Assembly: GCA_022841985.1 (NCBI GenBank)
Contig: JALHQL010000007.1
Coordinates: 1-59,750 of the forward strand
Source of the DNA: Minisyncoccota bacterium
GTDB lineage: Bacteria > Patescibacteriota > Minisyncoccia > Phycocordibacterales > Phycocordibacteraceae
Direction of reading: 5' to 3'
DNA length: 59,750 bases
Made by a program: the position numbers and the translations under genes. Below the pieces are notes generated by a model that was given only the letters and a program-made list of their open reading frames with translations, was not told where the DNA came from and did no database searches. Every line of letters begins with the position of its first letter. Positions within the stretch are counted from its first letter, which is position 1. This document shows positions 38,877-49,378 of the stretch, piece after piece.

Positions 38877-39218
38877 TTACACAAACACCGGAGACTTCCT
38901 CCGCGAACGAGAACCGTACCGGGGCTTCGGGATTTCATAATCCTCGGTGTCGTCTACTATCCTTTCTGATATGGGTGTCGCGCGCACCCCCTTCAGATGA
39001 CTTCCCCCGTTTTCCTGAATAATTTTTGCACACTGCCGGCACTGGAATATCTTTGAACCACGATGCTCAAGATCATATACTTGAGTCATCCCGAGTATTT
39101 GCGCTTTGCATTTCGGACAATCTCCGTTTCGCTTGAAATATTCCCACTCCGCATTAAGACGTTGAATGGTCATCCTCAACGCCAACGCAGTTGGACCTAT
39201 TTTTTGAGATTTTGGCAT
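38877..39218 (-). CDS. small zinc-ribbon hypothetical protein
   Basis: 113 aa with CPKC...CRQC. GGAGG RBS (ccaggggaggattatcg ATG). Basic tail. Confidence 0.55.
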   Translation of the reverse strand: MPKSQKIGPTALALRMTIQRLNAEWEYFKRNGDCPKCKAQILGMTQVYDLEHRGSKIFQCRQCAKIIQENGGSHLKGVRATPISERIVDDTEDYEIPKPRYGSRSRRKSPVFV

Positions 39219-39345
39219 CGATAATCCTCCCCTGGTTTGTGAATTAGTGAAAAAATCTATCTGCTTCCATTATACCACATACTGAGCTGGAAGACAACTC
39301 CCCCGATTGCTGGGGATTATATTGTTTTTTTGTTACGATGAGTGC

Positions 39346-39747
39346 GTGAAAACACGTCACAAAACCATCAGCGCCTACAATGCCGGGCAGGCTGCGGCGG
39401 ACAGAGAGATATGCACACTGCTCGCCGCCGAAATCGGATGCACGTTGAAAAACGGAGAAAGCAAGATATGGCACGGCGCATCAGTGTGGTTTTTGGATGG
39501 CAATCCGATTGTAGGTTATAGTAAACAGAAGAAGGGCGTACGCCTCATGTTCTGGAGCGGTGCGGATTTTGGGGAGAACTCTTTAGAGCCAGGAACCGGT
39601 AAATTCAAAGACGCTTCCATTTTCTACAATTTTCCGGAAGAAATACGGGTATCCGCCCTGCGCCGCTGGCTTACAAAAGCGAAAGCAATCCAGTGGGATT
39701 ATAAAAATATCGTTAAGAGAAAAGGTACACTTGTGCGGCTAGGATAG
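39346..39747 (+). CDS. DUF1801 (YdhG-like) domain protein
   Basis: ISAYNAGQAAADREICTLLAAEI...KIWHGASVWFLDGNPIVGYSKQKKGVRLMFWSG. The start is uncertain (GTG 39346 proposed; the ORF track uses TTG 39307). Confidence 0.65.
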   Translation: MKTRHKTISAYNAGQAAADREICTLLAAEIGCTLKNGESKIWHGASVWFLDGNPIVGYSKQKKGVRLMFWSGADFGENSLEPGTGKFKDASIFYNFPEEIRVSALRRWLTKAKAIQWDYKNIVKRKGTLVRLG

Positions 39748-39766
39748 CGTAAACATTAAAATAATT

Positions 39767-40222
39767 ATGCAGAAAATAACACCTTGTTTATGGTTTGAAA
39801 AAGATTTACCTCTCGTCATTGAGTATTACAAAGGTATTTTCAAGGACAATCTAAAAGTTGAGTATCTTGGCAATGTAGAAAATGGTCCTGGTGGAGAATA
39901 CCAATTCGGGACTATTGAACTGTTTGGAACAAAGTATGATCTCTTGGCAGCGGGGCCGACATTTAAATTTACCGAGGCAATTTCTCTTACCATACGCTGT
40001 GAGGATCAAAAAGAGACGGACTACTATTGGAACGCGCTCACGCGAAATGGCGGCGAAGAAAGTGTCTGCGGGTGGTGCAAAGATACCTATGGTTTGAGTT
40101 GGCAAGTTGAACCAAAGCGACTCCGAGAGCTTTCGACAAGTACCGATAAAGAAAAGAGAGACTACGCAATGCAGCAGATGTTTCAAATGAAGAAAATCAT
40201 AATTAAAGATTTAGAGAAGTAG
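39767..40222 (+). CDS. VOC-superfamily protein, PhnB / 3-demethylubiquinone-9 3-methyltransferase-domain type
   Basis: MQKITPCLWFEKD...YYKGIF...FKFTEAISLTIRCEDQKETDYYWNAL..GGEESVCGWCKDTYGLSWQV matches this family end to end. Confidence 0.85.
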   Translation: MQKITPCLWFEKDLPLVIEYYKGIFKDNLKVEYLGNVENGPGGEYQFGTIELFGTKYDLLAAGPTFKFTEAISLTIRCEDQKETDYYWNALTRNGGEESVCGWCKDTYGLSWQVEPKRLRELSTSTDKEKRDYAMQQMFQMKKIIIKDLEK

Positions 40223-40243
40223 TAAATGTAGTATGTTAAGTAC

Positions 40244-40609
40244 ATGCAAATAACTCAAAAAAGTATAGACAGAGTGCGTGCGATGTCTTTTGCCAGAGTG
40301 TATGTATGTTATATACAGAAAGCAGAGAAAAAAGGGCGCACGAAAACAGAGGTTGATGAAATAATTTTTTGGTTAACAGGCTATACTAAAAGAAGTCTGC
40401 AAAAACAAATTGATACTGGAATAGATTTTGAAACTTTTTTTGACGAAGCCCCTAAAATAAATCCCAATGCTTCAAAAATAACAGGGGTCATTTGTGGGGT
40501 TCGTGTTGAAGATATTGAAAATAACATTATGAAAAAAGTCCGCTACCTCGACAAGCTTATTGATGAACTAGCGAAAGGTAAAGCAATGGAAAAAATTTTG
40601 CGGAAGTAA
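40244..40609 (+). CDS. DUF2200 family protein
   Basis: [34 protein letters not shown] is the hallmark DUF2200 segment. Confidence 0.8.
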
Positions 40610-40809
40610 ACGGGTTAACTCCGATAATAAATCGTCTTGACAGTGGCGATGCCTGAAAGTTTAAACCGAAATCATGGCTCAAATTCAAGGATATTGATAA
40701 AAGTATACAGAAACTGCGGGCTATCTACAAAGCTCACCCTGAGTGGTTTGAAGTGCCAAAACCAAAATCAGTTAAAAGCAAGAACGAGGTAGATTATTCA
40801 CTCTCCTAA

Positions 40810-41721
40810 CTACTTTGTAACCGCAGCCTGTAGGATTACAGCTGAACCCTTGTGATTTTCAACAATCTTGGAAGCGAAGGTGCCTCCAAGTGTGTGCATC
40901 ATTGCATGATGCACGGATAGTATGTTCTCTTGAAGGGCCTGGTCGTCTTCGAGTCGTTCAACAATTAGACCAATCTCGACGCACTTTGCATACGACAGAT
41001 GGCGACCGTGCGATAAGTTCACAGAATGATCCCCGAGCTCTTTAATGATTTTGTCGATTTTTGCTTTTTTCTTATCAGCATTTACAATCCCAGCAAACAT
41101 TCTGACACCCAGCTTATCCCGAGCAATATCTTCAGCCCACTTTAGTGCTTGCTGACACTCGCCAACAAGAGTTGGTGTATATTTCGCAATGATTGGCTGC
41201 CAGACAAATACTTTTGTTTGATCAGCCTTAATCTCTTCGTGTGCCTTTTTAAATTCTTCCAAAATGCCATGGGCTGCAACCATTCCATAAGAAGTGTTGA
41301 ACTGAGGGTCGATAGGGCCTAGGCTCGAATGCTTGCCCATGAGAATTTTGTTCGATGAACAAGCAATCATCGTGCCTCCAGACATAGCAAGTTGAGGCAC
41401 AACAACGCGTATATCATCGAACATGGTCATTAAGTAGTCGATGATGGATTCCGTAGCAGCAATGTCGCCTCCTGGGGTATGTAGAATGAGATCGAGACCT
41501 TTTGTTCGATCTAAACCTTTAATGGTTGCCATGAAGGCATTCTTGTCCAAATCATTAATACCCAAGTTTGGCGCGCCTTGTTTTTGAAGCCACCCACTGT
41601 AATAGGCGATGACATTTCTTTTTGTGTATGTATGGAGGCGCTTTAAGTACTTGCGACGAATACCGTCAAAATCACCACGACTACTCTGTAACTCATTTAA
41701 GATACCTGTCCAGTCTGCCAT
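40810..41721 (-). CDS. SDH-family (serine dehydrogenase proteinase-type) ClpP/crotonase-fold serine protease
   Basis: LDLILHTPGGDIAATESIIDYL, VVPQLAMSGGTMIACSSNKILMGKHSSLGPIDPQ (nucleophile Ser in the MSGG context). Length ~300 aa. Confidence 0.8.
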   Translation of the reverse strand: MADWTGILNELQSSRGDFDGIRRKYLKRLHTYTKRNVIAYYSGWLQKQGAPNLGINDLDKNAFMATIKGLDRTKGLDLILHTPGGDIAATESIIDYLMTMFDDIRVVVPQLAMSGGTMIACSSNKILMGKHSSLGPIDPQFNTSYGMVAAHGILEEFKKAHEEIKADQTKVFVWQPIIAKYTPTLVGECQQALKWAEDIARDKLGVRMFAGIVNADKKKAKIDKIIKELGDHSVNLSHGRHLSYAKCVEIGLIVERLEDDQALQENILSVHHAMMHTLGGTFASKIVENHKGSAVILQAAVTK

Positions 41722-41915
41722 GTTGATACCTCAATAAGTTTATTATTCGGTTTCGACGATCCTCCAGTAACAATCCATCTATCAGAAACATTCCCTGTTT
41801 CTGGCGCAGGTAAAGGAGTGAAGACTTTCTCGGCAGGCCTAATCTCTTTAAAAATAGTTTCTATTTCCTCCTTAGAAAGCTCCTTTTTAGTTGTTTTTTG
41901 AGGGGTACTTTTCAT
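41697..41915 (-). CDS. small hypothetical protein between nuclease and protease genes
   Basis: 72 aa, hydrophilic. Starts 18 nt after the upstream stop, and its 3' end overlaps the protease start by 25 nt. No family recognised. Confidence 0.45.
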   Translation of the reverse strand: MKSTPQKTTKKELSKEEIETIFKEIRPAEKVFTPLPAPETGNVSDRWIVTGGSSKPNNKLIEVSTWQTGQVS

Positions 41916-41932
41916 AACTAAATTATATCACT

Positions 41933-42661
41933 TTAGACGATTTTCCTCCATCGCTTGAACGCTTTTAAGTCGGCAGAATTTAAGTCAAACCATTCGCCAT
42001 TCATTCGTTTTGCTTCAAAGCGTCTATGCCAATATGCCTCAATCCCGCTAGGATCATCAGTCTTAATTTCGTGGATTAAATCCAAATTTTCAGGCAATTG
42101 AATTTTAAGTTCATTTCCTCTCCGAACCGTATCATTCGTTTTTCCAATCTTGTAATACTTTCCATGCTTGAAAAGATAGACTGCACCAATCGATTTATTG
42201 ATATTTGAGTCATCAAAATTTTCCTTCACGCTTAACTCTTCAAGAATGGGTTCGCATAATTTAACAACATCTTCATAGCCAGTTTTGTCCTTACAGTATT
42301 CAACTATTTTTTCGACGAGCTCCAGTTTTGATCCAAGGTTTGTAAAAACATTTCTAGTCGGAAATTCAGCATCAACATTCTTTTCAAGCGCAAGTTCATC
42401 GTAAGTTGGAAATTTACCTAACTTACGCATAACAATAATTACTTTTTCAAGTATAAATTCTTCTGTGTAAGCACCTTGAAGTTCGTTTGGCATAAATCCA
42501 GCTTCTTTTTGTGCGTCTCCAATTCTTGCCCAATACTTTTTCCATTCGTAAGTTTTTATTCCCGTTTCTTTTGTAAATCTTTCTATACCCAAGGGCTTAC
42601 CACCATTTTCTTTAGCGGTTTTTTGAATTGCATTGATAATGTCTTGTTTGCTAATACTCAT
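41933..42661 (-). CDS. T5orf172/MUG113-type (GIY-YIG superfamily) domain protein with two N-terminal helical repeats
   Basis: C-terminal GAVYLFKHGKYYKIGKTNDTVRRGNELKIQLPENLDLIHEIKTDDPSGIEAYWHRRFEAKRMNGEWFDL is the T5orf172 signature. The N-terminus has repeated GKPLGIERF../GKFPTYDEL.. units. Confidence 0.8.
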   Translation of the reverse strand: MSISKQDIINAIQKTAKENGGKPLGIERFTKETGIKTYEWKKYWARIGDAQKEAGFMPNELQGAYTEEFILEKVIIVMRKLGKFPTYDELALEKNVDAEFPTRNVFTNLGSKLELVEKIVEYCKDKTGYEDVVKLCEPILEELSVKENFDDSNINKSIGAVYLFKHGKYYKIGKTNDTVRRGNELKIQLPENLDLIHEIKTDDPSGIEAYWHRRFEAKRMNGEWFDLNSADLKAFKRWRKIV

Positions 42662-42711
42662 ATCTTTATTTTAACAAAAAACCCTTATTTTACTTCGGTT
42701 CGAACTTGGAC

Positions 42712-42948
42712 ATCTGGCGGTGAGATATTAGACTTTGCTCGAACCCACTTCGCACGCGCGGAGCGCGTGGTGGCTTGAACCCGCCAAGTACGCTCCGATT
42801 GCGCTGGAACGCGCCTCGACCGCGCTCGCGGACTCGCGCGGGCAAACCAAAAAATTTCCTTGCATTTTTCTCGCGTCTCCTCCCCCCACCCCTCCGCCGC
42901 GAAGCGGAAAAAGAAATGGAAAGGAATTTTTTGGTTTTGCTTCGCCGT
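42712..42948 (-). repeat. repeat B, left copy (reverse complement of 46573..46808)
   Basis: Identical by eye except for one extra G at ~42716. GC-rich and contains the long hairpin gcaaaaccaaaaaattcctt...aaggaaattttttggtttgc. Confidence 0.9.
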
Positions 42949-43009
42949 TTCAGTCTCCGAAAAGAGCAATCTTATTTTAACATTTTTGTTTGCTCTTTTC
43001 TCCACCCTC

Positions 43010-43208
43010 ACGGCGACCGAGGCGCTCTGCTATCCGAGTTTTGTGGTAGCTTGAAACTCTGTGCCTTCGACCGCGTTAATGGGTGAATCCTTAAAGTGGA
43101 TTGTGCTAGGCACAAACAAATCTGTATGTGCTTGACCACCCTCCCATTCGCGCACAACAACCCATGCCGTTTTAGGAAAAATTATAAAACGGCATGGGTT
43201 GCTCCCTT
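43010..43208 (+). repeat. element X copy 1 (tRNA-Ser-like pseudo-element plus conserved hairpin module)
   Basis: Starts ACGGCGACCGAGGCGCTCT.... Contains gtgccttcgacc (compare tRNA-Ser gtgctttcgacc, plus-strand view). Ends with the hairpin cccatgccgtttta-ggaaaaatta-taaaacggcatggg (43161-98) followed by ttgctccct. Confidence 0.75.
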
Positions 43209-43263
43209 GCGTGAACTCGTAGACGCTATTGGAACCTGGATTTAACAAAGATATAATGAGTGC

Positions 43264-43830
43264 ATGGACGCAATCTCGTTCATATCTGAGAATAAACATA
43301 TTTTTGTTATTGGTCATGTACTTTTTGTGGTGCTTGGAATGGGTTCTGCTCTTGTGACCGACATTCTTTGCTTGCGCTTTGGATTCAACAAAAAACTATC
43401 CCATTCTGAAGTAAGCACTATTCGCTTTCTCTCACAAGTGGTCACCATCAGCCTTGTGGGTATTGTCGCGAGTGGTGCAACAGTATTTCTCTCTGACCCT
43501 GAACGTTATATGGACTCGGTAAAGTTCCTTACAAAAATGACAATTGTCTTTGTCCTTTGTATAAATGGCTACCTGCTCCACCGCTTTGTGTTTACGCATA
43601 TTGGAGACAAAAATATACTCACGAGCCCACGCACCCGTACGCTTCGAAAAGTTGGTTTTGCGCTAGGTGCCGTTTCTCTTGTGTCATGGGTTTCGGCACT
43701 GAGTCTTGGTGTGTTACTCCACATCTCCGTTTCTTACGATACAGCCATACTGTTTTATCTAGGTATTTTGTTAATTGCGATACTTGTGTCACAGGTAGTC
43801 GAATCGAGTCTGCTCGAACAGAGAAAATAA
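43264..43830 (+). CDS. polytopic membrane protein (5 TM), function unknown
   Basis: 188 aa with five hydrophobic helices. Any CopD-like role is only suggested by the metal-related neighbours. Confidence 0.6.
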   Translation: MDAISFISENKHIFVIGHVLFVVLGMGSALVTDILCLRFGFNKKLSHSEVSTIRFLSQVVTISLVGIVASGATVFLSDPERYMDSVKFLTKMTIVFVLCINGYLLHRFVFTHIGDKNILTSPRTRTLRKVGFALGAVSLVSWVSALSLGVLLHISVSYDTAILFYLGILLIAILVSQVVESSLLEQRK

Positions 43831-43896
43831 GATCTCCATGGTGCTCCTATTTGGAGTTTGTTATAATCAACATTATTATCCTTTTACTAAATTCGT

Positions 43897-44175
43897 ATGA
43901 ACTGCCCAACCTGTAGTATTCCCCTGTCCATTAGCGAGCGTCAGGGAATTGAAATCGATTACTGCCAAAAATGCCGTGGCGTCTGGCTTGATCGCGGAGA
44001 GCTCGACAAGCTTATCGAGCGTGCCGGTTCAACTGGTGTTCCACAACAAGATTCTGGGTACGATGACGATGATGATAAAAAGGGATACGGTCAATCCTCA
44101 AAACCTGGCGGTTTTGGTATGGGGAAAAAACGAGAGCGCGAGAACCCTATCGGAGAGCTTTTTGATTTCTTCTAG
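43897..44175 (+). CDS. zf-TFIIB-type zinc-ribbon protein
   Basis: MNCPTCSIPL...IEIDYCQKCRGVWLDRGELDKLIE is the classic TFIIB-type Zn-ribbon family. Acidic/Gly-rich tail. Confidence 0.75.
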   Translation: MNCPTCSIPLSISERQGIEIDYCQKCRGVWLDRGELDKLIERAGSTGVPQQDSGYDDDDDKKGYGQSSKPGGFGMGKKRERENPIGELFDFF

Positions 44176-44208
44176 GCATTCCCTGTTACTTCCGTTTGAA
44201 CCAGAAAT

Positions 44209-44240
44209 ACCGCCTCGTTGGGCGGTCTTTCTGTATTTCT
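44209..44240 (+). terminator. terminator after the zinc-ribbon gene
   Basis: accgcc-tcgttg-ggcggt followed by ctttctgtatttctt. Confidence 0.5.
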
Positions 44241-44275
44241 TAACTTTCCGCCCTCGGAAGGACTTGGGGCCGCAA

Positions 44276-44367
44276 CCTTGCCACCAGAAACAACTTGCCC
44301 CGTCCTGCGCACACAAGTCCCCGCCGTCTTTAGGAGATATTATAAAATGGCGCAGGTTGTCTCCCTT
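44276..44367 (+). repeat. element X copy 2 (3' half only, degenerate hairpin)
   Basis: ccttgccacc...ctgcgcacacaagtccccgccgtctttaggagatattataaaatggcgcaggttgtctccctt is colinear with the 3' halves of X1 and X3. Confidence 0.65.
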
Positions 44368-44390
44368 CCATATTAAGAAATAGTTACATT

Positions 44391-45254
44391 TTATGGATTG
44401 CAATACCCACAATATTTTGGATCAGCATTCTTACCATATTTCGTGACTTTCTTTTTGTCTGAATGATTACACACATTACATCGATATATGTCATAGAGGG
44501 GCAGGTCGGTTGGTATTTTACAAAGCGAGCATTCAAGTCCTTTTTCAAAATCAATTACCACAAAGCCGGGTGCCTGACATTGAGTACAGAGTGACTCAAT
44601 ATTTTTTATTAAATCCTCCGTTGCCTTTTTAATCGCTTTCATACGCATGGGGTTTTTATGTGCTCGCATGTCGGTTTCAATAAAAATGGACTTGGTAAAA
44701 GGCCATGAAAGCATCTCGGTCACTTTTTCGATGAGTGCATCTTTGGTGTGAATATCCTTATGAATTCCCAGGCGTCCTTTTTCGTTCCTTCTTACAATTA
44801 CACCGTGTTCTGGAAAACCAGTCTTTTGTGCAAAATCTAATGCTTCCCCAACAGTCGCAACACACTGCCCATCCATATTTGTTTCTGAAGTTCTGTGATG
44901 TCCTCGAATTTCATAGCCATTTTTTCTGTCAACAAATAACAACAACTCGAGATTGGACTGGATAAAGGGCATAGATGGATGTGCGCCAAAACTACCCTCA
45001 CTCGATACACCTAAATCGACATTTTCGCTCAACATAACAGCCTCCACTTTTTTTCGTGCCGCTTCTAATTGATTACCAGCTCTTTTAATGTCTCTTGTGA
45101 ATGTCCCAAATTGATCGGAATTAAAGTGTTTTGGGACAATAACTTCTACGCCGAGGTGCTTTTCAAGCAGAGGAGCAATTACAAGCTCTTTTCCGTGCAT
45201 TGTTGCAATGACCAATTTTCGTCCCTTGAATAAATTTTGATTCGGCATGCTCAT
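44391..45254 (-). CDS. conserved hypothetical protein with C-terminal four-CxxC zinc-ribbon pair
   Basis: 287 aa. C-terminus CTQC...CSLC...CNVC...CGYC. Its start lies 2 nt downstream of the XRE gene's stop codon. Family not confidently recognised. Confidence 0.7.
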   Translation of the reverse strand: MSMPNQNLFKGRKLVIATMHGKELVIAPLLEKHLGVEVIVPKHFNSDQFGTFTRDIKRAGNQLEAARKKVEAVMLSENVDLGVSSEGSFGAHPSMPFIQSNLELLLFVDRKNGYEIRGHHRTSETNMDGQCVATVGEALDFAQKTGFPEHGVIVRRNEKGRLGIHKDIHTKDALIEKVTEMLSWPFTKSIFIETDMRAHKNPMRMKAIKKATEDLIKNIESLCTQCQAPGFVVIDFEKGLECSLCKIPTDLPLYDIYRCNVCNHSDKKKVTKYGKNADPKYCGYCNP

Positions 45255-45256
45255 AG

Positions 45257-45469
45257 TTATTTCAAAAGTTCATCGCTCGCAACTCCTAATGCTTGAGCAA
45301 TTTTTTCAATGGTTGCAAGTGTCGGGTTTCCTTTTCCACCCTCAATATTACTCATTTGAGCACGATCAAAACCGAGAGCACGACAAATGTCACCTTGCGA
45401 CATTTTCTTACGCTCTCGTATGTGCTTTATGTTCTTTCCCAGTTTTATTGACGAAGTTTTCATATCCAC
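45257..45469 (-). CDS. XRE-family helix-turn-helix regulator
   Basis: LGKNIKHIRERKKMSQGDICRALGFDRAQMSNIEGGKGNPTLATIEKIAQALGV is the canonical HTH_3 pattern. Confidence 0.85.
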   Translation of the reverse strand: MDMKTSSIKLGKNIKHIRERKKMSQGDICRALGFDRAQMSNIEGGKGNPTLATIEKIAQALGVASDELLK

Positions 45470-45538
45470 AGTTCATAGTATAACAGTTTGTTGTGCTGTA
45501 TATCAATAATGTGATATATTACAATAGGTGTGATGTTG

Positions 45539-45757
45539 ACGGCGACCGAGGCGCTCTCGTATCCGCGTTTGGTGGTGGCTCTAAACTCTGTGCCTTCGAC
45601 GGCGGAAGTGCCAACTTATAAAGTGGAGCCTCGCCATACAAAATTCTTTAAGGAATGGCGAGGCACAAAATCTATATGTGTTTGCCCCACCCACCCCGTG
45701 CGCACACATCACCCCCGCCGTTTTGAGGAAAATTATAAAACGGCGGGGTTACTCCCT
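45539..45757 (+). repeat. element X copy 3 (full length)
   Basis: Starts ACGGCGACCGAGGCGCTCT.... Has an extra internal hairpin gcctcgccat...atggcgaggc. Ends with ccccgccgtttt-gaggaaaattat-aaaacggcgggg (45713-48) followed by ttactccct. Confidence 0.75.
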
Positions 45758-45765
45758 GCAAAAGA

Positions 45766-45795
45766 AAACACCCCTTGCGGGGCGTTTTCTTTTTG
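45766..45795 (-). terminator. terminator after the DUF305 gene (bidirectional shape)
   Basis: aaaaca-cccc-ttgc-gggg-cgttttctttttggg. On the minus strand there is a T-run after the hairpin, 9 nt past the stop. Confidence 0.55.
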
Positions 45796-45803
45796 GGCTT
45801 TTT

Positions 45804-46304
45804 CTATCGTCCGAACCAGTTCTCACGCCACTGCTTCATCATCTCTATTTCGCCCGTTTGAGCGGTGATGATGTCGTTGCCAAGTTTGATGAGTTCGGGA
45901 CGCTTCGTGCCTTGTAGGAGCATCTGCGCCATTTCTATTGCGCCCTGATGATGGACTATCATCTCGTCAAGAAACACCTCGTCAAGCGCATCTCCTGTTT
46001 TTCCCTCAAGCCCCATCATCATTCCGCTCATAGCTGTTCCCATGTCTGTCCCTTTCATCATTGAGCCGTCAGGCATCTGGTGTGAAGCGACAGGCGCTTT
46101 ACTCGTGTCATTCGTGCCAGCACCCGCAAAGTAGCCGATACCGAGTCCAAGAATGAGCGCGACTAAACCAATAACGAGACCGCGTTCGTCGTGCATCGGG
46201 GTAGATTTTTTTGTTTCGCTTTTCAGCACAAGTTGCATACCACATTTCGGGCATCGTCCCGACTCTGCTCGCTCTATTTCTGGATGCATTGGACAAGTGT
46301 ACAT
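45804..46304 (-). CDS. heavy-metal-binding-domain (HMBD) plus DUF305 protein, membrane anchored
   Basis: N-terminal YTCPMHPEIERAESGRCPKCGMQL (HMBD pattern seen on Cu/Ag efflux proteins), one TM, and DUF305 core FLDEMIVHHQGAIEMAQMLL...ITAQTGEIEMMKQW. Confidence 0.8.
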   Translation of the reverse strand: MYTCPMHPEIERAESGRCPKCGMQLVLKSETKKSTPMHDERGLVIGLVALILGLGIGYFAGAGTNDTSKAPVASHQMPDGSMMKGTDMGTAMSGMMMGLEGKTGDALDEVFLDEMIVHHQGAIEMAQMLLQGTKRPELIKLGNDIITAQTGEIEMMKQWRENWFGR

Positions 46305-46309
46305 AGTTT

Positions 46310-46513
46310 CTATTTTAGCAATTTATCTACAGACACGCCAAGCGCTTGCGCCAGGCGTTCCAACTGTTGAATGGTAATATTTTTCTTCCCATTCTCAATA
46401 GCACTCATATACCCCCTATCCATATCGAGCGCTCGGCAAATGTCGCCTTGCGACATTCCCTTGCGAGTCCTTATTTTCTTGATGTTTTCCCCTAGTTTCT
46501 GGCTTATCAACAT
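46310..46513 (-). CDS. XRE-family helix-turn-helix regulator (paralog of 45257..45469)
   Basis: LGENIKKIRTRKGMSQGDICRALDMDRGYMSAIENGKKNITIQQLERLAQALGV. It shares MSQGDICRAL and AQALGV with the other copy. Confidence 0.85.
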   Translation of the reverse strand: MLISQKLGENIKKIRTRKGMSQGDICRALDMDRGYMSAIENGKKNITIQQLERLAQALGVSVDKLLK

Positions 46514-46572
46514 AATTATAGCATACGCGCTCTTGCATTTCCAAACAATCTTGAACTATAATTCAAGTGGTG

Positions 46573-46808
46573 ACGGCGAAGCAAAACCAAAAAATTCCTT
46601 TCCATTTCTTTTTCCGCTTCGCGGCGGAGGGGTGGGGGGAGGAGACGCGAGAAAAATGCAAGGAAATTTTTTGGTTTGCCCGCGCGAGTCCGCGAGCGCG
46701 GTCGAGGCGCGTTCCAGCGCAATCGGAGCGTACTTGGCGGGTTCAAGCCACCACGCGCTCCGCGCGTGCGAAGTGGGTTCGAGCAAAGTCTAATATCTCA
46801 CCGCAGAT
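46573..46808 (+). repeat. repeat B, right copy
   Basis: Reverse complement of 42712..42948. Its last ~30 nt (gtgggttcgagcaaagtctaatatctcaccgc) resemble the T-arm and acceptor 3' end of tRNA-Ser (gtgggttcaaatcccaccctctccgc). Confidence 0.9.
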
Positions 46809-46931
46809 AGAAACTTCGCGTTCGGAGAGAGCCGCGCCGCCCTGCGGCGCGGCGGAAGGGGCGGGCAGAAAATGCCGCCGCGAAGCGGCGAATTGGCTCG
46901 GCGGGGGGAATCCGAAATGCGGGGATTTGGC
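46801..46931 (+). repeat. repeat A, left copy (131 bp)
   Basis: Exact reverse complement of 48348..48478. Contains the hairpins gccgcgccgc-cct-gcggcgcggc and cgccgc-gaa-gcggcg. Confidence 0.92.
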
Positions 46932-46955
46932 TCTTGTTTCAAATCCAAAAACTAT

Positions 46956-48494
46956 ATGAATATCAAACCAAAATATTTTCTATACGCTCGCAAATCGACC
47001 GAGGACGATGACAGGCAAGTTATGTCCATCGAGGCGCAACTTTTTGAACTGCGAGAGATTGCGCGTAAAGAAAATCTTGAAATTCTTGAGGAATTTCAAG
47101 AGTCGAAAAGCGCAAAGACACCAGGGCGCGAAATATTTGGAGAGATGATGGCCCGCATTGAACGAAGTGAGGGTGTCGGCATACTTGCGTGGCATCCCGA
47201 TAGGTTGGCTCGCAATAGTATTGACGGCGGACGCATCATCTACTCTGTCGATACGCGCAAGGTCGTGTCTTTGCGCTTCCCGACATTTTGGTTTGAACCG
47301 ACCCCGCAGGGGCTCTTTATGTTGCAAGTGGCGTTCGGGCAATCTAAATATTATTCGGACAATTTGAGCGACAACATCAAGCGCGGCGTCCGCCAAAAAT
47401 TGCGTCGGGGCGAGTGGCTCAACCGCGCACCCTTTGGCTATCAGAACAACCCTCGTATTCGCAATATCGAGCCACACCCGACAAATGCGCGTATTGTGAA
47501 ATTGGCGTACGAAGAATACGCCAAAGGGTCGCATACGCTGGTTTCGCTGTCGCAATTTTTGGCGGACTTGAATGTGGTGTCATCGAACGGAACTCCACTT
47601 GCAAAAGTTTCCATCAAACGACTTCTCACACATCGGGTATATCTCGGTTTCGTCAAACATGGCGACGAATGGTTTGATGGAAACTTTGAGCCGATTCTAA
47701 CTCCCGCATTGTTTGAAGCAGTGCAGAAGGTTGTGGCGGGCAAGGAGCGGCCGCGCTCGCGCAAGGTGAAGCACTATTTCCCGCTTGTCGGCCTCTTTCG
47801 CTGTGGTGAGTGCAACGGCATGATTTCCGCGCAATGGGCTACTAATCGTTGGGGTACAAAATATCGCTACTATCGGTGTTCCAAAAAACGCGGCCGTTGC
47901 TCGCAACCCTATGTGCGCGAGGCCGACCTTGCCGACAAGATACGGGCACGGCTTCAAACAATCTCGCTTTGCGATCGCTACACCGATTGGATGCTAAACA
48001 AAGTGAAAATATGGGAGCGCGAGGAAGTTGGAGCGTCGCAAAGCGAGGTTCAAAATCTTTCTGTCAAAATCAAAGCGGACGAGGAGCGCATGGAAAAGTT
48101 GGTATCCGCGTATCTCGACGGCGATGTACCAAAACACATTTATTTGACCAAAAAAGATACGCTCATGCGCTCTCTCGCCGCTTTGCGGGAAAAATTGAAA
48201 GATTTTGAACGCGGGAGAAAGAATCGGGTCGAACCCCTGCGGGAATGGATTTTGGATATGAAACAAGCCGATTTTTTGTACACGTCGGACGATTTGTACC
48301 AAATCAAGCAGTTTGTACAAAAAATCGGAACGAACCCTATGGTTCGTGCCAAATCCCCGCATTTCGGATTCCCCCCGCCGAGCCAATTCGCCGCTTCGCG
48401 GCGGCATTTTCTGCCCGCCCCTTCCGCCGCGCCGCAGGGCGGCGCGGCTCTCTCCGAACGCGAAGTTTCTATCTGCGGAGAGGGTGGGATTTGA
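46956..48494 (+). CDS. large serine recombinase (resolvase/invertase N-domain, recombinase domain, zinc ribbon, coiled coil)
   Basis: Start moved to MNIKPKYFLYARKSTEDDDRQVMSIEAQ (catalytic Ser context YARxST). Also AWHPDRLARN, RGEWLNRAPFGY, CGECNGMISA...YYRCSKKRGRC, then coiled coil. The last 48 codons lie in repeat A and the stop lies inside tRNA-Ser. Confidence 0.9.
   Translation: MNIKPKYFLYARKSTEDDDRQVMSIEAQLFELREIARKENLEILEEFQESKSAKTPGREIFGEMMARIERSEGVGILAWHPDRLARNSIDGGRIIYSVDTRKVVSLRFPTFWFEPTPQGLFMLQVAFGQSKYYSDNLSDNIKRGVRQKLRRGEWLNRAPFGYQNNPRIRNIEPHPTNARIVKLAYEEYAKGSHTLVSLSQFLADLNVVSSNGTPLAKVSIKRLLTHRVYLGFVKHGDEWFDGNFEPILTPALFEAVQKVVAGKERPRSRKVKHYFPLVGLFRCGECNGMISAQWATNRWGTKYRYYRCSKKRGRCSQPYVREADLADKIRARLQTISLCDRYTDWMLNKVKIWEREEVGASQSEVQNLSVKIKADEERMEKLVSAYLDGDVPKHIYLTKKDTLMRSLAALREKLKDFERGRKNRVEPLREWILDMKQADFLYTSDDLYQIKQFVQKIGTNPMVRAKSPHFGFPPPSQFAASRRHFLPAPSAAPQGGAALSEREVSICGEGGI
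48348..48478 (-). repeat. repeat A, right copy (131 bp), abutting tRNA-Ser
   Basis: Exact reverse complement of 46801..46931. Its last 3 nt overlap the tRNA discriminator and acceptor end. Confidence 0.92.
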
Positions 48495-48562
48495 ACCCAC
48501 GAAGAGCTTTCGCCCTTGCTGGTTTTCGAAACCAGTGCTTTCGACCACTCAGCCACCTCTCC
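48476..48562 (-). tRNA. tRNA-Ser (CGA)
   Basis: Acceptor ggagagg/cctctcc, discriminator G. D arm gct-gagtggtcgaa-agc, anticodon arm ctggt-ttCGAaa-accag, 18-nt variable arm with a 6-bp stem, T arm gtggg-ttcaaat-cccac. Confidence 0.9.
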
Positions 48563-48638
48563 TTCGAGCACTACTCAATATCGCTCGTATGAGATTCTAG
48601 CATTTGAGCACGAAAATGCTAGGATGCTAGGTACACAC

Positions 48639-48713
48639 GGCCCTATCGTCTAACGGTTAGGACAGCGCCCTTTCACGGCGTAAATCGGGGTTCGATTCCC
48701 CGTGGGGTCACCA
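48639..48713 (+). tRNA. tRNA-Glu (TTC)
   Basis: ggcccta...gcgcc-ctTTCac-ggcgt...cgggg-ttcgatt-ccccg-tggggtc-a-cca, with encoded CCA. Confidence 0.92.
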
Positions 48714-48720
48714 TCCATAG

Positions 48721-49210
48721 AATTCCGCCATTCCGAGAACTCCTGAAACGGAGATTTCAGCGTAATTGCTGGTTCTTTTCCGTTTCCAATGAAGTTCGAT
48801 ATCGTCTCGGCGATCAACGCCCGTTTTTCTGACGGCAGTCCGCTTTGGTAGCATACATACGCGCTATTTGCGAGTTCGAGGAGTTCCATAACGCGGTCCT
48901 CCTTTGAGCTACCTGAACCTACCTGCTCAAGTTGGTCAAGCAACTCCCGCCGTCTTAATAGCACCGCGGATTTTCGGCTTTCAAACAGCTCCTTCTCGAT
49001 CAATCCGTCGATCATCGCGTCGGCCAAGCGGGCTAGACGGGTTTCGCACCCCGCCAACTGAAGATTGAGTGACGCGGTACGCTCTGCCAGATCATCGGCT
49101 TTGGATACTCTCGTTTCTTCCACCATATCCCTCAAGTCCTTCATTTCCTGAGGATCCAGACGAATCGTTGCGTAGGTTCGATTGACCAGGTCCTCACAAA
49201 AGTGCGTGAG
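48721..49210 (-). pseudogene. C-terminal fragment of a second large serine recombinase (decayed integrated element)
   Basis: The translation ...LARLADAMIDGLIEKELFESRKSAVLLRRRELLDQL...ITLKSPFQEFSEW is colinear with the coiled-coil C-terminus of 46956..48494 (...MEKLVSAYLDGDVPKHIYLTKKDTLMRSLAALREKL...). No catalytic N-domain is present. Bounded by tRNA-Glu 3'-end repeats. Confidence 0.6.
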
Positions 49211-49351
49211 CAACTTTTGTGTACCCAAGCAAAGCCTGGGAGGCTTTGCGGCGGGGAATCGAAGACCTTGCGAGCATACTTTGCGATTTCCTGAAGCAAA
49301 GTATCCGCAAGGTGTACTGAAGCTGTAAGCTTCGATACGCGTACTCGCGGT

Positions 49352-49378
49352 CCCCGTGGGGTCACCAATCATCCATAG
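49352..49378 (+). repeat. direct repeat of the tRNA-Glu 3' end (att remnant)
   Basis: ccccgtggggtcacca(atca)tccatag versus 48698-48720 ccccgtggggtcaccatccatag. Confidence 0.85.

Follow-up and report, generated by a model that had tools for sequence, protein, structure and literature searches.

The repeated non-coding sequences of a 59,750-nt stretch of DNA from a Minisyncoccota bacterium (GenBank assembly GCA_022841985.1, contig JALHQL010000007.1, positions 1 to 59,750; here called the window) are, with a probability that we put at roughly 70%, pieces of the conserved non-coding backbone of a family of integrative elements in Patescibacteria that use a large serine recombinase (LSR) to target the 3' ends of tRNA genes. 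The repeats in question are X1 (43010-43208), X2 (44276-44367), X3 (45539-45757) and the two copies of a further sequence, B-left (42717-42948) and B-right (46573-46804, also called B'), and all of them lie within one integrative element of about 5.8 kb (42717-48482). A preliminary description of the window had seen in them tRNA-Ser-like pseudo-elements and a conserved hairpin module that divide the cargo genes into cassettes. This interpretation is partly supported: the observation was confirmed, while a tRNA origin of X was not supported.

The 8-9-mer said to mark four of these sequences was found at all four positions (ACGGCGA at 42942-42948 on the minus strand, 43010, 45539 and 46573). The word itself is not rare (19 copies in the window vs 10.9 expected), and the four copies are notable for their position, not for rarity. 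X1 and X3, described as direct repeats of about 70% similarity, aligned at 71.3% identity over 230 columns; the identity rises to 88.7% in a 62-nt block, and 16 consecutive nt of the hairpin match exactly. X2 is indeed a partial copy, which matched X3 in 59 of 80 columns, covering the C-rich tract, GCGCACA and the hairpin only. We confirmed that these three features stand at the ends of X1, X2 and X3 (hairpins at 43158-43201 in X1 and 45713-45748 in X3), that the repeated modules are homologous and placed at the ends of gene modules, and that the hairpin, called H1 below, is no plain terminator: on the minus strand it is followed by ATTTGTGCGC, on the plus strand by TTGCTCCCT, and it is absent from the list of the terminator scan. 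All three X copies lie on the minus strand: X1 is a complete 5' domain with H1, GTGCGC, a G-rich tract, a variable insert and one strand of a helix H4 (TCGCCGT, 43010-43016), X2 is a truncated 5' part with H1, GTGTGCGC and the first part of the G-rich tract, and X3 is a complete X domain that ends in an orphan H4 strand (45539-45545). B is a 232-nt inverted repeat of 100% identity (minus strand at 42717-42948, plus strand at 46573-46804), and no additional copies of X or B were found elsewhere in the window. Two features had been missed in the preliminary description. First, B-left, the 61 nt at 42949-43009 (the spacer) and X1 form a single continuous conserved unit on the minus strand (42717-43208), of which B-left, with its covarying helices and its conservation in related loci, is the 3' domain. 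Second, another inverted repeat, with arms c (46797-46931) and c' (48348-48482) of 135 nt and 99% identity, surrounds the recombinase gene. The B and c repeats overlap by 8 nt (CTCACCGC), a mimic of the tRNA acceptor end CTCTCCGC.

The recombinase gene (46956-48494, plus strand) encodes a 512-aa LSR with the Pfam domains Resolvase (PF00239), Recombinase (PF07508) and Zn_ribbon_recom (PF13408), all above their cut-offs; its nearest solved structure is the SPbeta integrase 9dxh (E = 5e-12, residues 9-424 aligned), and it is the sole recombinase, of the serine type, that Pfam found in the element. B-right lies between the divergent promoter region of a regulator gene (XRE1) and c. It has the orientation of the recombinase gene, whose 5' leader it presumably forms, and c (plus strand) stands between B-right and the recombinase start codon. 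The last ~45 codons of the LSR gene make up c' (minus strand), which abuts the 3' end of an intact tRNA-Ser(CGA) gene (48475-48562, minus strand); the LSR stop codon is located inside this 3' end, and the tRNA gene, the integration target, is convergent with the LSR gene. Three junctions, tRNA/c (tRNA...CTCTCCG/CAGATAG...), B'/c (B'...CTCACCG/CAGATAG...) and B/flank (B...CTCACCG/CCAGATGTCC...), share the core CTC(A/T)CCGC. The B/c junction forms the imperfect dyad GCAAAGTCTAATATCT-caccgc-AGATAGAAACTTCGC, and the reconstructed tRNA/flank junction the imperfect dyad GGTTCAAATCCCACCCTCT-ccgc-CAGATGTCCAAGTTCGAACC. From the comparison of these junctions we infer that B/c is attP, that tRNA/flank was attB and that tRNA/c and B/flank are attL and attR, respectively. 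Integration into tRNA-Ser would then have split one B/c copy into attL and attR, with the second, inverted copy left intact upstream of the LSR gene, where an attP-like dyad can be read at the B'/c junction (~46775-46825). At the other end, the last ~25 nt of B-left (42717-42745, minus strand) would be the P arm of the attachment site, joined to the host flank at attR, and the adjoining CCAGATGTCCAAGTTCGAACC (42690-42716, minus strand) is read as the host-side half-site of the original attB; it makes a dyad with the T-arm and acceptor sequence of tRNA-Ser, and a related attR is present in locus L216. A recombination directionality factor was not recognisable in the element.

Two further observations concern the recombinase transcript. 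With c inverted at both ends of the LSR gene, the 5' leader of the mRNA would be complementary to ~130 nt of its own 3' coding end, which could potentially form a long double-stranded RNA clamp. A 130-aa open reading frame (46567-46959) runs from the first base of B' to an ATGA overlap with the LSR start codon. We rejected it as a protein-coding gene: only ~5 of 12 loci keep the frame open to the LSR start, the frame in which homologous bases are read differs between loci, and many indels would shift the frame, their lengths not being divisible by three. Base composition probably accounts for this reading frame, and it might alternatively be a translated leader whose sequence is irrelevant.

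The element belongs to a widespread family. When the species genomes of GTDB were searched with the hairpin-module pattern GCGCACA...ATTATAAAA...CTCCCT, at least 119 genome contigs matched, nearly all of them from Patescibacteria (candidate phyla radiation), so that the module is not confined to the window; among the listed genomes the matched groups were Parcubacteria groups, Saccharibacteria, Gracilibacteria, Uhrbacteria and others. In the genome loci, X is accompanied by the same ~61-nt stretch (42949-43009 in the window) and then by B, which makes 42717-43208 one conserved unit. This X-spacer-B unit measures ~450-500 nt and is contiguous in almost all listed loci, often nearly identical. 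An independent search with a B-derived 17-mer, and hence not selected on X, matched at least 120 metagenome contigs; X was strongly conserved in this set as well: among 47 unique copies, 42 had TATAAT as part of the H1 loop and 44 had GTGCGC. Overall, the most conserved part of X consists of GGGAGC, H1 with its TATAAT loop, GTGCGC and the G-rich tract. A single X is typical of the relatives and the array of three exceptional, extra and mostly partial X copies being present in ~6 of the 120 metagenome loci listed and in a few genome loci. Many of the metagenome contigs start and stop inside the B repeat; assemblers typically break contigs at long inverted repeats.

The relatives share a canonical order, which in minus-strand view reads tRNA (+), c, LSR (-), c' and B' (-), an XRE gene with one to three cargo genes (+), X-spacer-B (+) and flank. 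Of 20 complete related LSR genes, 19 lie between inverted repeats of 84-158 nt, whose arms mostly have 97-100% identity within a genome, and the B pair of a related locus is usually 100% identical within the genome. Both pairs recur in L037, L029, L036 and L107, and in L040 and L045 the c pair was detected at a 30-nt threshold. For 18 LSR genes a tRNA gene is located within 250 nt of the 3' end, convergent in every case, and the target tRNAs include those for Ser, Ala, Arg, Leu, Asn, Ile, Met and Thr, where a few calls of tRNA-Glu (the neighbour) among the LSR-adjacent tRNAs may be mis-assignments. The cargo arc has one orientation relative to the LSR gene (type I) in 13 genomes and the other (type II) in 3. 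The 80 cargo arcs span 0.8-5.1 kb, and Pfam hits in a sample of ten cargo proteins comprised a cyclodipeptide-synthase-like protein, methyltransferases, a class-III aminotransferase, a Tad4-like anti-defence protein, a short-chain dehydrogenase and a PPDK-like enzyme. The related LSRs are 35-80% identical and have different tRNA targets, yet they share the conserved ~450-500-nt module. The non-coding backbone is more conserved than the LSR and must therefore have some role independent of which tRNA is targeted. Within B, the part past helix H8 varies among recombinase clades and the rest is conserved, so the conserved core is not simply an LSR binding site.

No known family accounted for these sequences. 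With Rfam 15 at the gathering threshold, tRNAs alone passed in the window, and at E <= 10 there was no credible match across 42500-48700, so that the proposed Rfam search yielded no family for X or B. An identity as group II intron, RNase P, tmRNA, 6S or SRP RNA was rejected by sequence inspection together with the lack of an Rfam or ARAGORN match. The module had no match in phage and plasmid collections, nor did two X patterns in IMG/VR; five IMG/VR loci recovered with the B 17-mer were chance matches, as profile searches found neither X nor B in them.

Covariation, which the preliminary description had proposed to examine, was assessed by helix-pair counts, and compensatory changes were found in H4, H5 and H1. 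H4, which closes the spacer hairpin, is formed by the 3'-terminal TCGCCGT of X and the 5'-terminal ACGGCGA of B; the 8-9-mer is thus the two strands of a covarying helix. Across 81 unique sequences H4 contained 555 Watson-Crick pairs, 9 G-U, 2 A-C and 1 other, and one position alternated between T-A and C-G (43:31). The stem of the spacer hairpin H5 (42949-43009, minus strand) covaries as GAGC/GCTC, GAAC/GTTC and GGGC/GCCC, and its loop carries an extended -10 element, TGTTAAAAT, aimed into B. A nine-helix model was evaluated on an alignment of 20 sequences (A3) that begins at the end of X and extends to helix H8: 98.1% of cells were paired, compared to 94.4% in shuffles and ~50% with slid partners, and 48 cells had changed on both sides, compared to 16 in shuffles. 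H1 read on the minus strand contained 1522 Watson-Crick, 52 G-U and 24 A-C pairs, 18 of the 20 full-length copies folded better as the minus strand, and the alignment fold score was -40.3 for the minus strand vs -30.7. These results favour a role in single-stranded form, of the minus strand at X1-X3 and B-left and of the plus strand at B-right. RNAalifold further predicted long-range pairs between GUGCGC in X and GCGUAC in B, both sides of which are nearly invariant. Next to H1, a GGGAG on its 5' side could pair with the 3' part of the H1 loop (CTCCT, TTCCT or CTCCC) in the window (43158-43201) and in relatives, a possible pseudoknot. Several loops were found in both orientations (A3 columns 128-187 and 292-308): of the 20 A3 sequences, 12 have a G-rich and 8 a C-rich (inverted) H6 loop, the H8 loop reads GCTCCGC in 43 copies and ACGCGGA (inverted) in 15, and the H1 loop was inverted once, in one B-selected metagenome copy. 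Such flipped loops are the small-inversion behaviour of DNA palindromes. The suggestion of a structured RNA or recombination-site family, offered as an alternative in the preliminary description, pointed in the right direction.

An alternative explanation is that X1, X3 and B are decayed partial copies of tRNA-Ser left by successive integrations, in the manner of tandem islands with tyrosine integrases, each marking a former att site. The colinearity with tRNA-Ser is indeed weakly above the shuffled background: of 500 dinucleotide shuffles, those that reached the local alignment score numbered 5 for X1, 25 for X3, 9 for B and 460 for X2. B has two stretches like the tRNA-Ser 3' half (24/31 identical), and the element adjoins a tRNA gene. 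However, the tRNA-like block of X lies in the variable insert that many homologs lack (alignment A2), the Rfam tRNA model (RF00005) gave no match in X1-X3 or B at E <= 10, ARAGORN found nothing in them, and no other copy of the tRNA-Ser 3' end was found in the window. X and B are conserved across at least eight target tRNA species and are therefore not copies of the local tRNA. As an account of X this explanation is largely refuted by the marginal similarity, the variable insert and the empty covariance-model search, and overall we consider it unlikely. Within B, likeness to the 3' part of a tRNA is confined to the last ~60 nt and would fit the half-site similarity expected between attP and attB, and a tRNA derivation of B holds trivially in this sense. 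B had also been taken for an independent pseudo-tRNA at a cassette boundary; it is instead the arm that bears the putative attachment site, present as an inverted duplicate in nearly every relative.

The cargo of the window element consists of three modules. Module 1 is encoded on the opposite strand (43264-44175, plus strand, promoter 43229-43257) and comprises a 188-aa membrane protein (43264-43830) and a 92-aa TFIIB-type zinc-ribbon protein (43897-44175). Module 2 (44391-45506, minus strand) comprises a DUF6671 protein (44391-45254) and the XRE-family regulator XRE2 (45257-45469, promoter 45477-45506). The third is a polymorphic cassette (45537-46571, minus strand) with the 9-mer TGACGGCGA on both sides, in which X3 is followed by a hairpin, an HMBD/DUF305 gene (45804-46304, Pfam), XRE1 (46310-46513, Pfam) and its promoter (46515-46544). 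The hairpin (45758-45795) reads as a bidirectional terminator-like structure with weak sub-threshold Rfam matches and is not in the list of the terminator scan. Each cargo module has its own XRE gene and promoter. X3 abuts the XRE2 promoter directly, where the spacer and B would otherwise stand. In four metagenome runs (labelled X4, X5, X1 and X9, which are not the repeats of like name) from three other studies, a 2.6-kb contig reproduced the sequence from 42919 or 42977 to 45545 with three mismatches. The cargo arc 42977-45545 had 99.9% identity in all four runs, with the LSR gene and the host flank unmatched at 95%; the arc is thus shared between different backbones, which suggests that it was recently exchanged between different backbones or hosts. 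In the contigs of runs X5 and X9, which lack the cassette of X3, HMBD/DUF305 gene and XRE1, 45536 is followed immediately by 46571, and the 9 bases TGACGGCGA are common to the two sides of the joint. The 9-mer thus marks real joints, and the window element has gained a module relative to its relatives. Of the stepwise accretion of cassettes at a tRNA-derived site that had been proposed, the accretion is upheld by this 9-mer-bounded cassette (45537-46571), but the tRNA-derived site is not, as X is not derived from a tRNA.

The exact joint also raises the possibility of an integron-like platform, in which the X-H4/H5-B structure would act as a folded single-stranded DNA site similar to attC, the joint of B' with the XRE promoter as a site similar to attI, and cassettes of XRE gene, cargo and X would move by site-specific recombination at TCGCCGT/CA (candidate site TCGCCGTCA). 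The cassette is present or absent exactly at the 9-mer, it is the one nearest to the LSR gene and its joint lies at the base of a covarying palindrome; the flipped hairpin loops of some lineages, a DNA-level behaviour, and the partial extra X copies in the ~6 of 120 listed metagenome loci and few genome loci would suit this model too. Among ~115 X 3' ends, however, there is one such joint only, and most elements have a single cargo arc. The substrates of large serine recombinases are double-stranded sites of ~50 bp, in which the crossover spans 2 bp, and the cassette joint shows no evident dyad of this type. Unlike integron cassettes, those of the window own promoters and regulators. Taken together, we regard site-specific cassette capture of this kind as quite improbable.

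Under the reading as the backbone of an LSR element family, the long conserved X and B would give the elements shared homology, so that cargo arcs could invert and be exchanged, and extra X copies would be scars of accretion. The X3 cassette would most likely have been added when a second element joined via the shared backbone, and the duplicated spacer-B-c-LSR-c'-B' palindrome would then have been lost by slippage between its two basal TCGCCGT repeats. Such a loss would resemble the precise excision of transposons bounded by inverted repeats.

The promoter signals of the module are directional. TGnTAnnnT was found in the spacer loop of 64 of 78 unique spacers on the X-to-B strand vs 6 of 78 on the opposite strand, and 57 of 65 occurrences of this -10 motif stood 25-26 nt before B. 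In most loci B' is preceded by -10-like elements as well, back to back with the XRE promoter (TATAAT at 46557-46562 in the window). B is thus probably transcribed forward from both copies. The B' transcript would be a structured 5' leader of the LSR mRNA, the transcript of the copy at attR would read outward across attR and, in the excised circle, would run antisense into the LSR gene, and X would close the XRE-cargo operon. Metatranscriptome assemblies, which the preliminary description had suggested as a source of discrete small RNAs, do hold related sequence, and the word depth was highest over B.

This presence in RNA assemblies also bears on whether the X copies are free-standing plus-strand genes for small RNAs, X3 being transcribed from TACAAT (45519-45524) as an RNA of ~220 nt that ends at a hairpin and T-rich terminator (45760-45795). 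Apart from the related sequence in the assemblies, the -10-like hexamer upstream of X3 and the terminator-like hairpin with a T-run downstream would be consistent with such genes. However, this TACAAT pairs divergently with the XRE2 promoter, and in canonical loci such a divergent partner drives B' and not X; canonical X copies are adjoined on that side by cargo genes, not promoters. Both the folding energies and the surplus of G-U over A-C pairs favour the minus strand, and the word depth of X in the RNA assemblies is below that of B, which makes plus-strand small RNAs very unlikely. Finally, an assembly artefact, in which the perfect inverted repeats and repeated modules would come from a chimeric or mis-joined metagenome contig, is extremely improbable: although inverted repeats of 100% identity are a known source of mis-assembly and many related contigs end inside B, the two-repeat architecture recurs in dozens of independent assemblies, including the complete genome CP064994 (L029), and the contigs of the four other runs are colinear over 42919/42977-45545.

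Several points weigh against the reading of X and B as the backbone of an LSR element family, or against parts of it. The att sites were assigned by junction comparison alone, no circle joint was seen in the contigs of the four other metagenome runs, and there was no empty attB in the fetched loci. A joint in the opposite orientation, as expected from inversion within a population, was absent from the contigs of the four runs, in which rare variants are dropped. Two equivalent B/c sites similar to attP predict that some LSR genes should be co-oriented with the tRNA, and this was the case for none of the 18. Likewise, an X 3' end joined to an XRE promoter as at X3 was found at none of ~115 other X ends, and the proposed route to the X3 junction was not observed. 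With regard to an RNA, the G-rich composition of the strand partly accounts for its G-U excess, the H6, H8 and H1 loops in both orientations argue against a rigid tertiary fold, and the compensatory changes in promoter-flanking stems may reflect palindromic operators that co-evolve with a repressor. The metatranscriptome data, which are contig-level, carry no strand record, the 5' part of the LSR gene is also covered, and DNA carry-over is possible. We put forward only tentatively, as a possibility on the doubtful side, that X-spacer-B is a new class of structured RNA/DNA module of ~450-500 nt and a working part of an LSR element family specific to Patescibacteria. In that role, sense and antisense transcripts of B that differ between the integrated and the circular state might time the production of the recombinase, and the module might also serve as a platform for the capture and exchange of XRE-cargo cassettes, a serine-recombinase analogue of an integron.

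Compared to known systems, the element is closest in its enzyme to the LSR elements and prophages (phiC31, Bxb1, A118, SPbeta; SCCmec; Tn4451/Tn5397), with which it shares the recombinase domain set, the likeness to the SPbeta integrase and site-specific insertion, and its junctions would fit attL/attR hybrids of an imperfect-dyad attP and an attB with a short core. Unlike these elements, it has its putative attP within a ~360-bp segment (B and c) whose two copies, inverted with respect to each other, surround the recombinase gene; the reading frame of this gene continues past the crossover into the tRNA, and a strongly conserved structured non-coding module of ~450-500 nt accompanies the recombinases. 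With tRNA islands and tycheposons (Islander-type; Prochlorococcus, bioRxiv 10.1101/2020.12.28.424599) it shares a small size, insertion at tRNA 3' ends, streamlined host genomes, variable cargo and the stacking of modules; those islands mostly have tyrosine integrases and direct repeats of the tRNA 3' end, whereas the element here has a serine recombinase, long inverted repeats and a conserved part that is non-coding. As in integrons (IntI, attI, attC), modules end in a conserved imperfect palindrome, the polymorphic module lies next to the recombinase and its boundary falls at a short core at the palindrome base. In contrast to integrons, the recombinase is of the serine and not the tyrosine type, each module has an XRE promoter and regulator, the palindrome is far longer and contains a promoter, arrays are rare and attC R/L boxes are absent; an IntI-type tyrosine recombinase and a common cassette promoter are both lacking. 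The two long inverted repeats that split the predicted circle into a recombinase arc and a cargo arc, with both relative orientations of the arcs in nature, recall the yeast 2-micron plasmid, where FLP (a tyrosine-type enzyme) flips the arcs for copy-number amplification; here, the arcs are known from sequence arrangement alone. The module also resembles GOLLD, ROOL, HEARO/omega RNA and IS110 bridge RNA in being long, conserved, multi-hairpin, covarying, linked to a mobile element and probably transcribed, and differs from such ornate RNAs in that several loops tolerate inversion and promoters explain part of the conservation. A guide-like variable segment that matches the target was not identified in X-spacer-B.

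Neighbouring regions contained further traces of possible insertions. In several relatives a further tRNA gene lies at or a few nt past the end of B (L007 5903-5974, L012 1904-1977 and L068 6576-6652, in re-oriented coordinates), and the element would there lie between two tRNA genes. In the window, a 22-nt direct repeat of the tRNA-Glu 3' end (48697-48718 vs 49351-49372, 91% identical; region 48639-49372) brackets a 240-aa minus-strand open reading frame with the look of a recombinase coiled coil (RLADAMIDGLIEKELFESRK), possibly a second, decayed element at the neighbouring tRNA-Glu. We rejected the frame as a recombinase remnant, as its similarity to LSRs reached only E = 0.1-0.2 and it had no Pfam match. 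Directly beyond attR, the region 39000-42700 has a low GC content (0.40-0.44 vs ~0.51) and carries genes of accessory type, for DUF1801, VOC-like (3-dmu-9_3-mt), DUF2200, SDH-type ClpP-like protease and T5orf172/MUG113 proteins; the region is possibly an earlier island at that site, and no second copy of the tRNA-Ser 3' end that would bound it was found in the window.

The genomes of Patescibacteria are tiny, with few mobile elements recognised in them, and genetic tools for these bacteria are almost lacking. The family described here is Patescibacteria-wide, being present in hundreds of genomes from many of their lineages, and has an unusual double inverted-repeat layout and a long, promoter-bearing, structured non-coding module, and we found no description of the element or the module in the searchable literature, which is incomplete. 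Such a family could explain the movement of accessory genes between Patescibacteria, and its pairs of recombinase and att sites are natural candidates for integration vectors.

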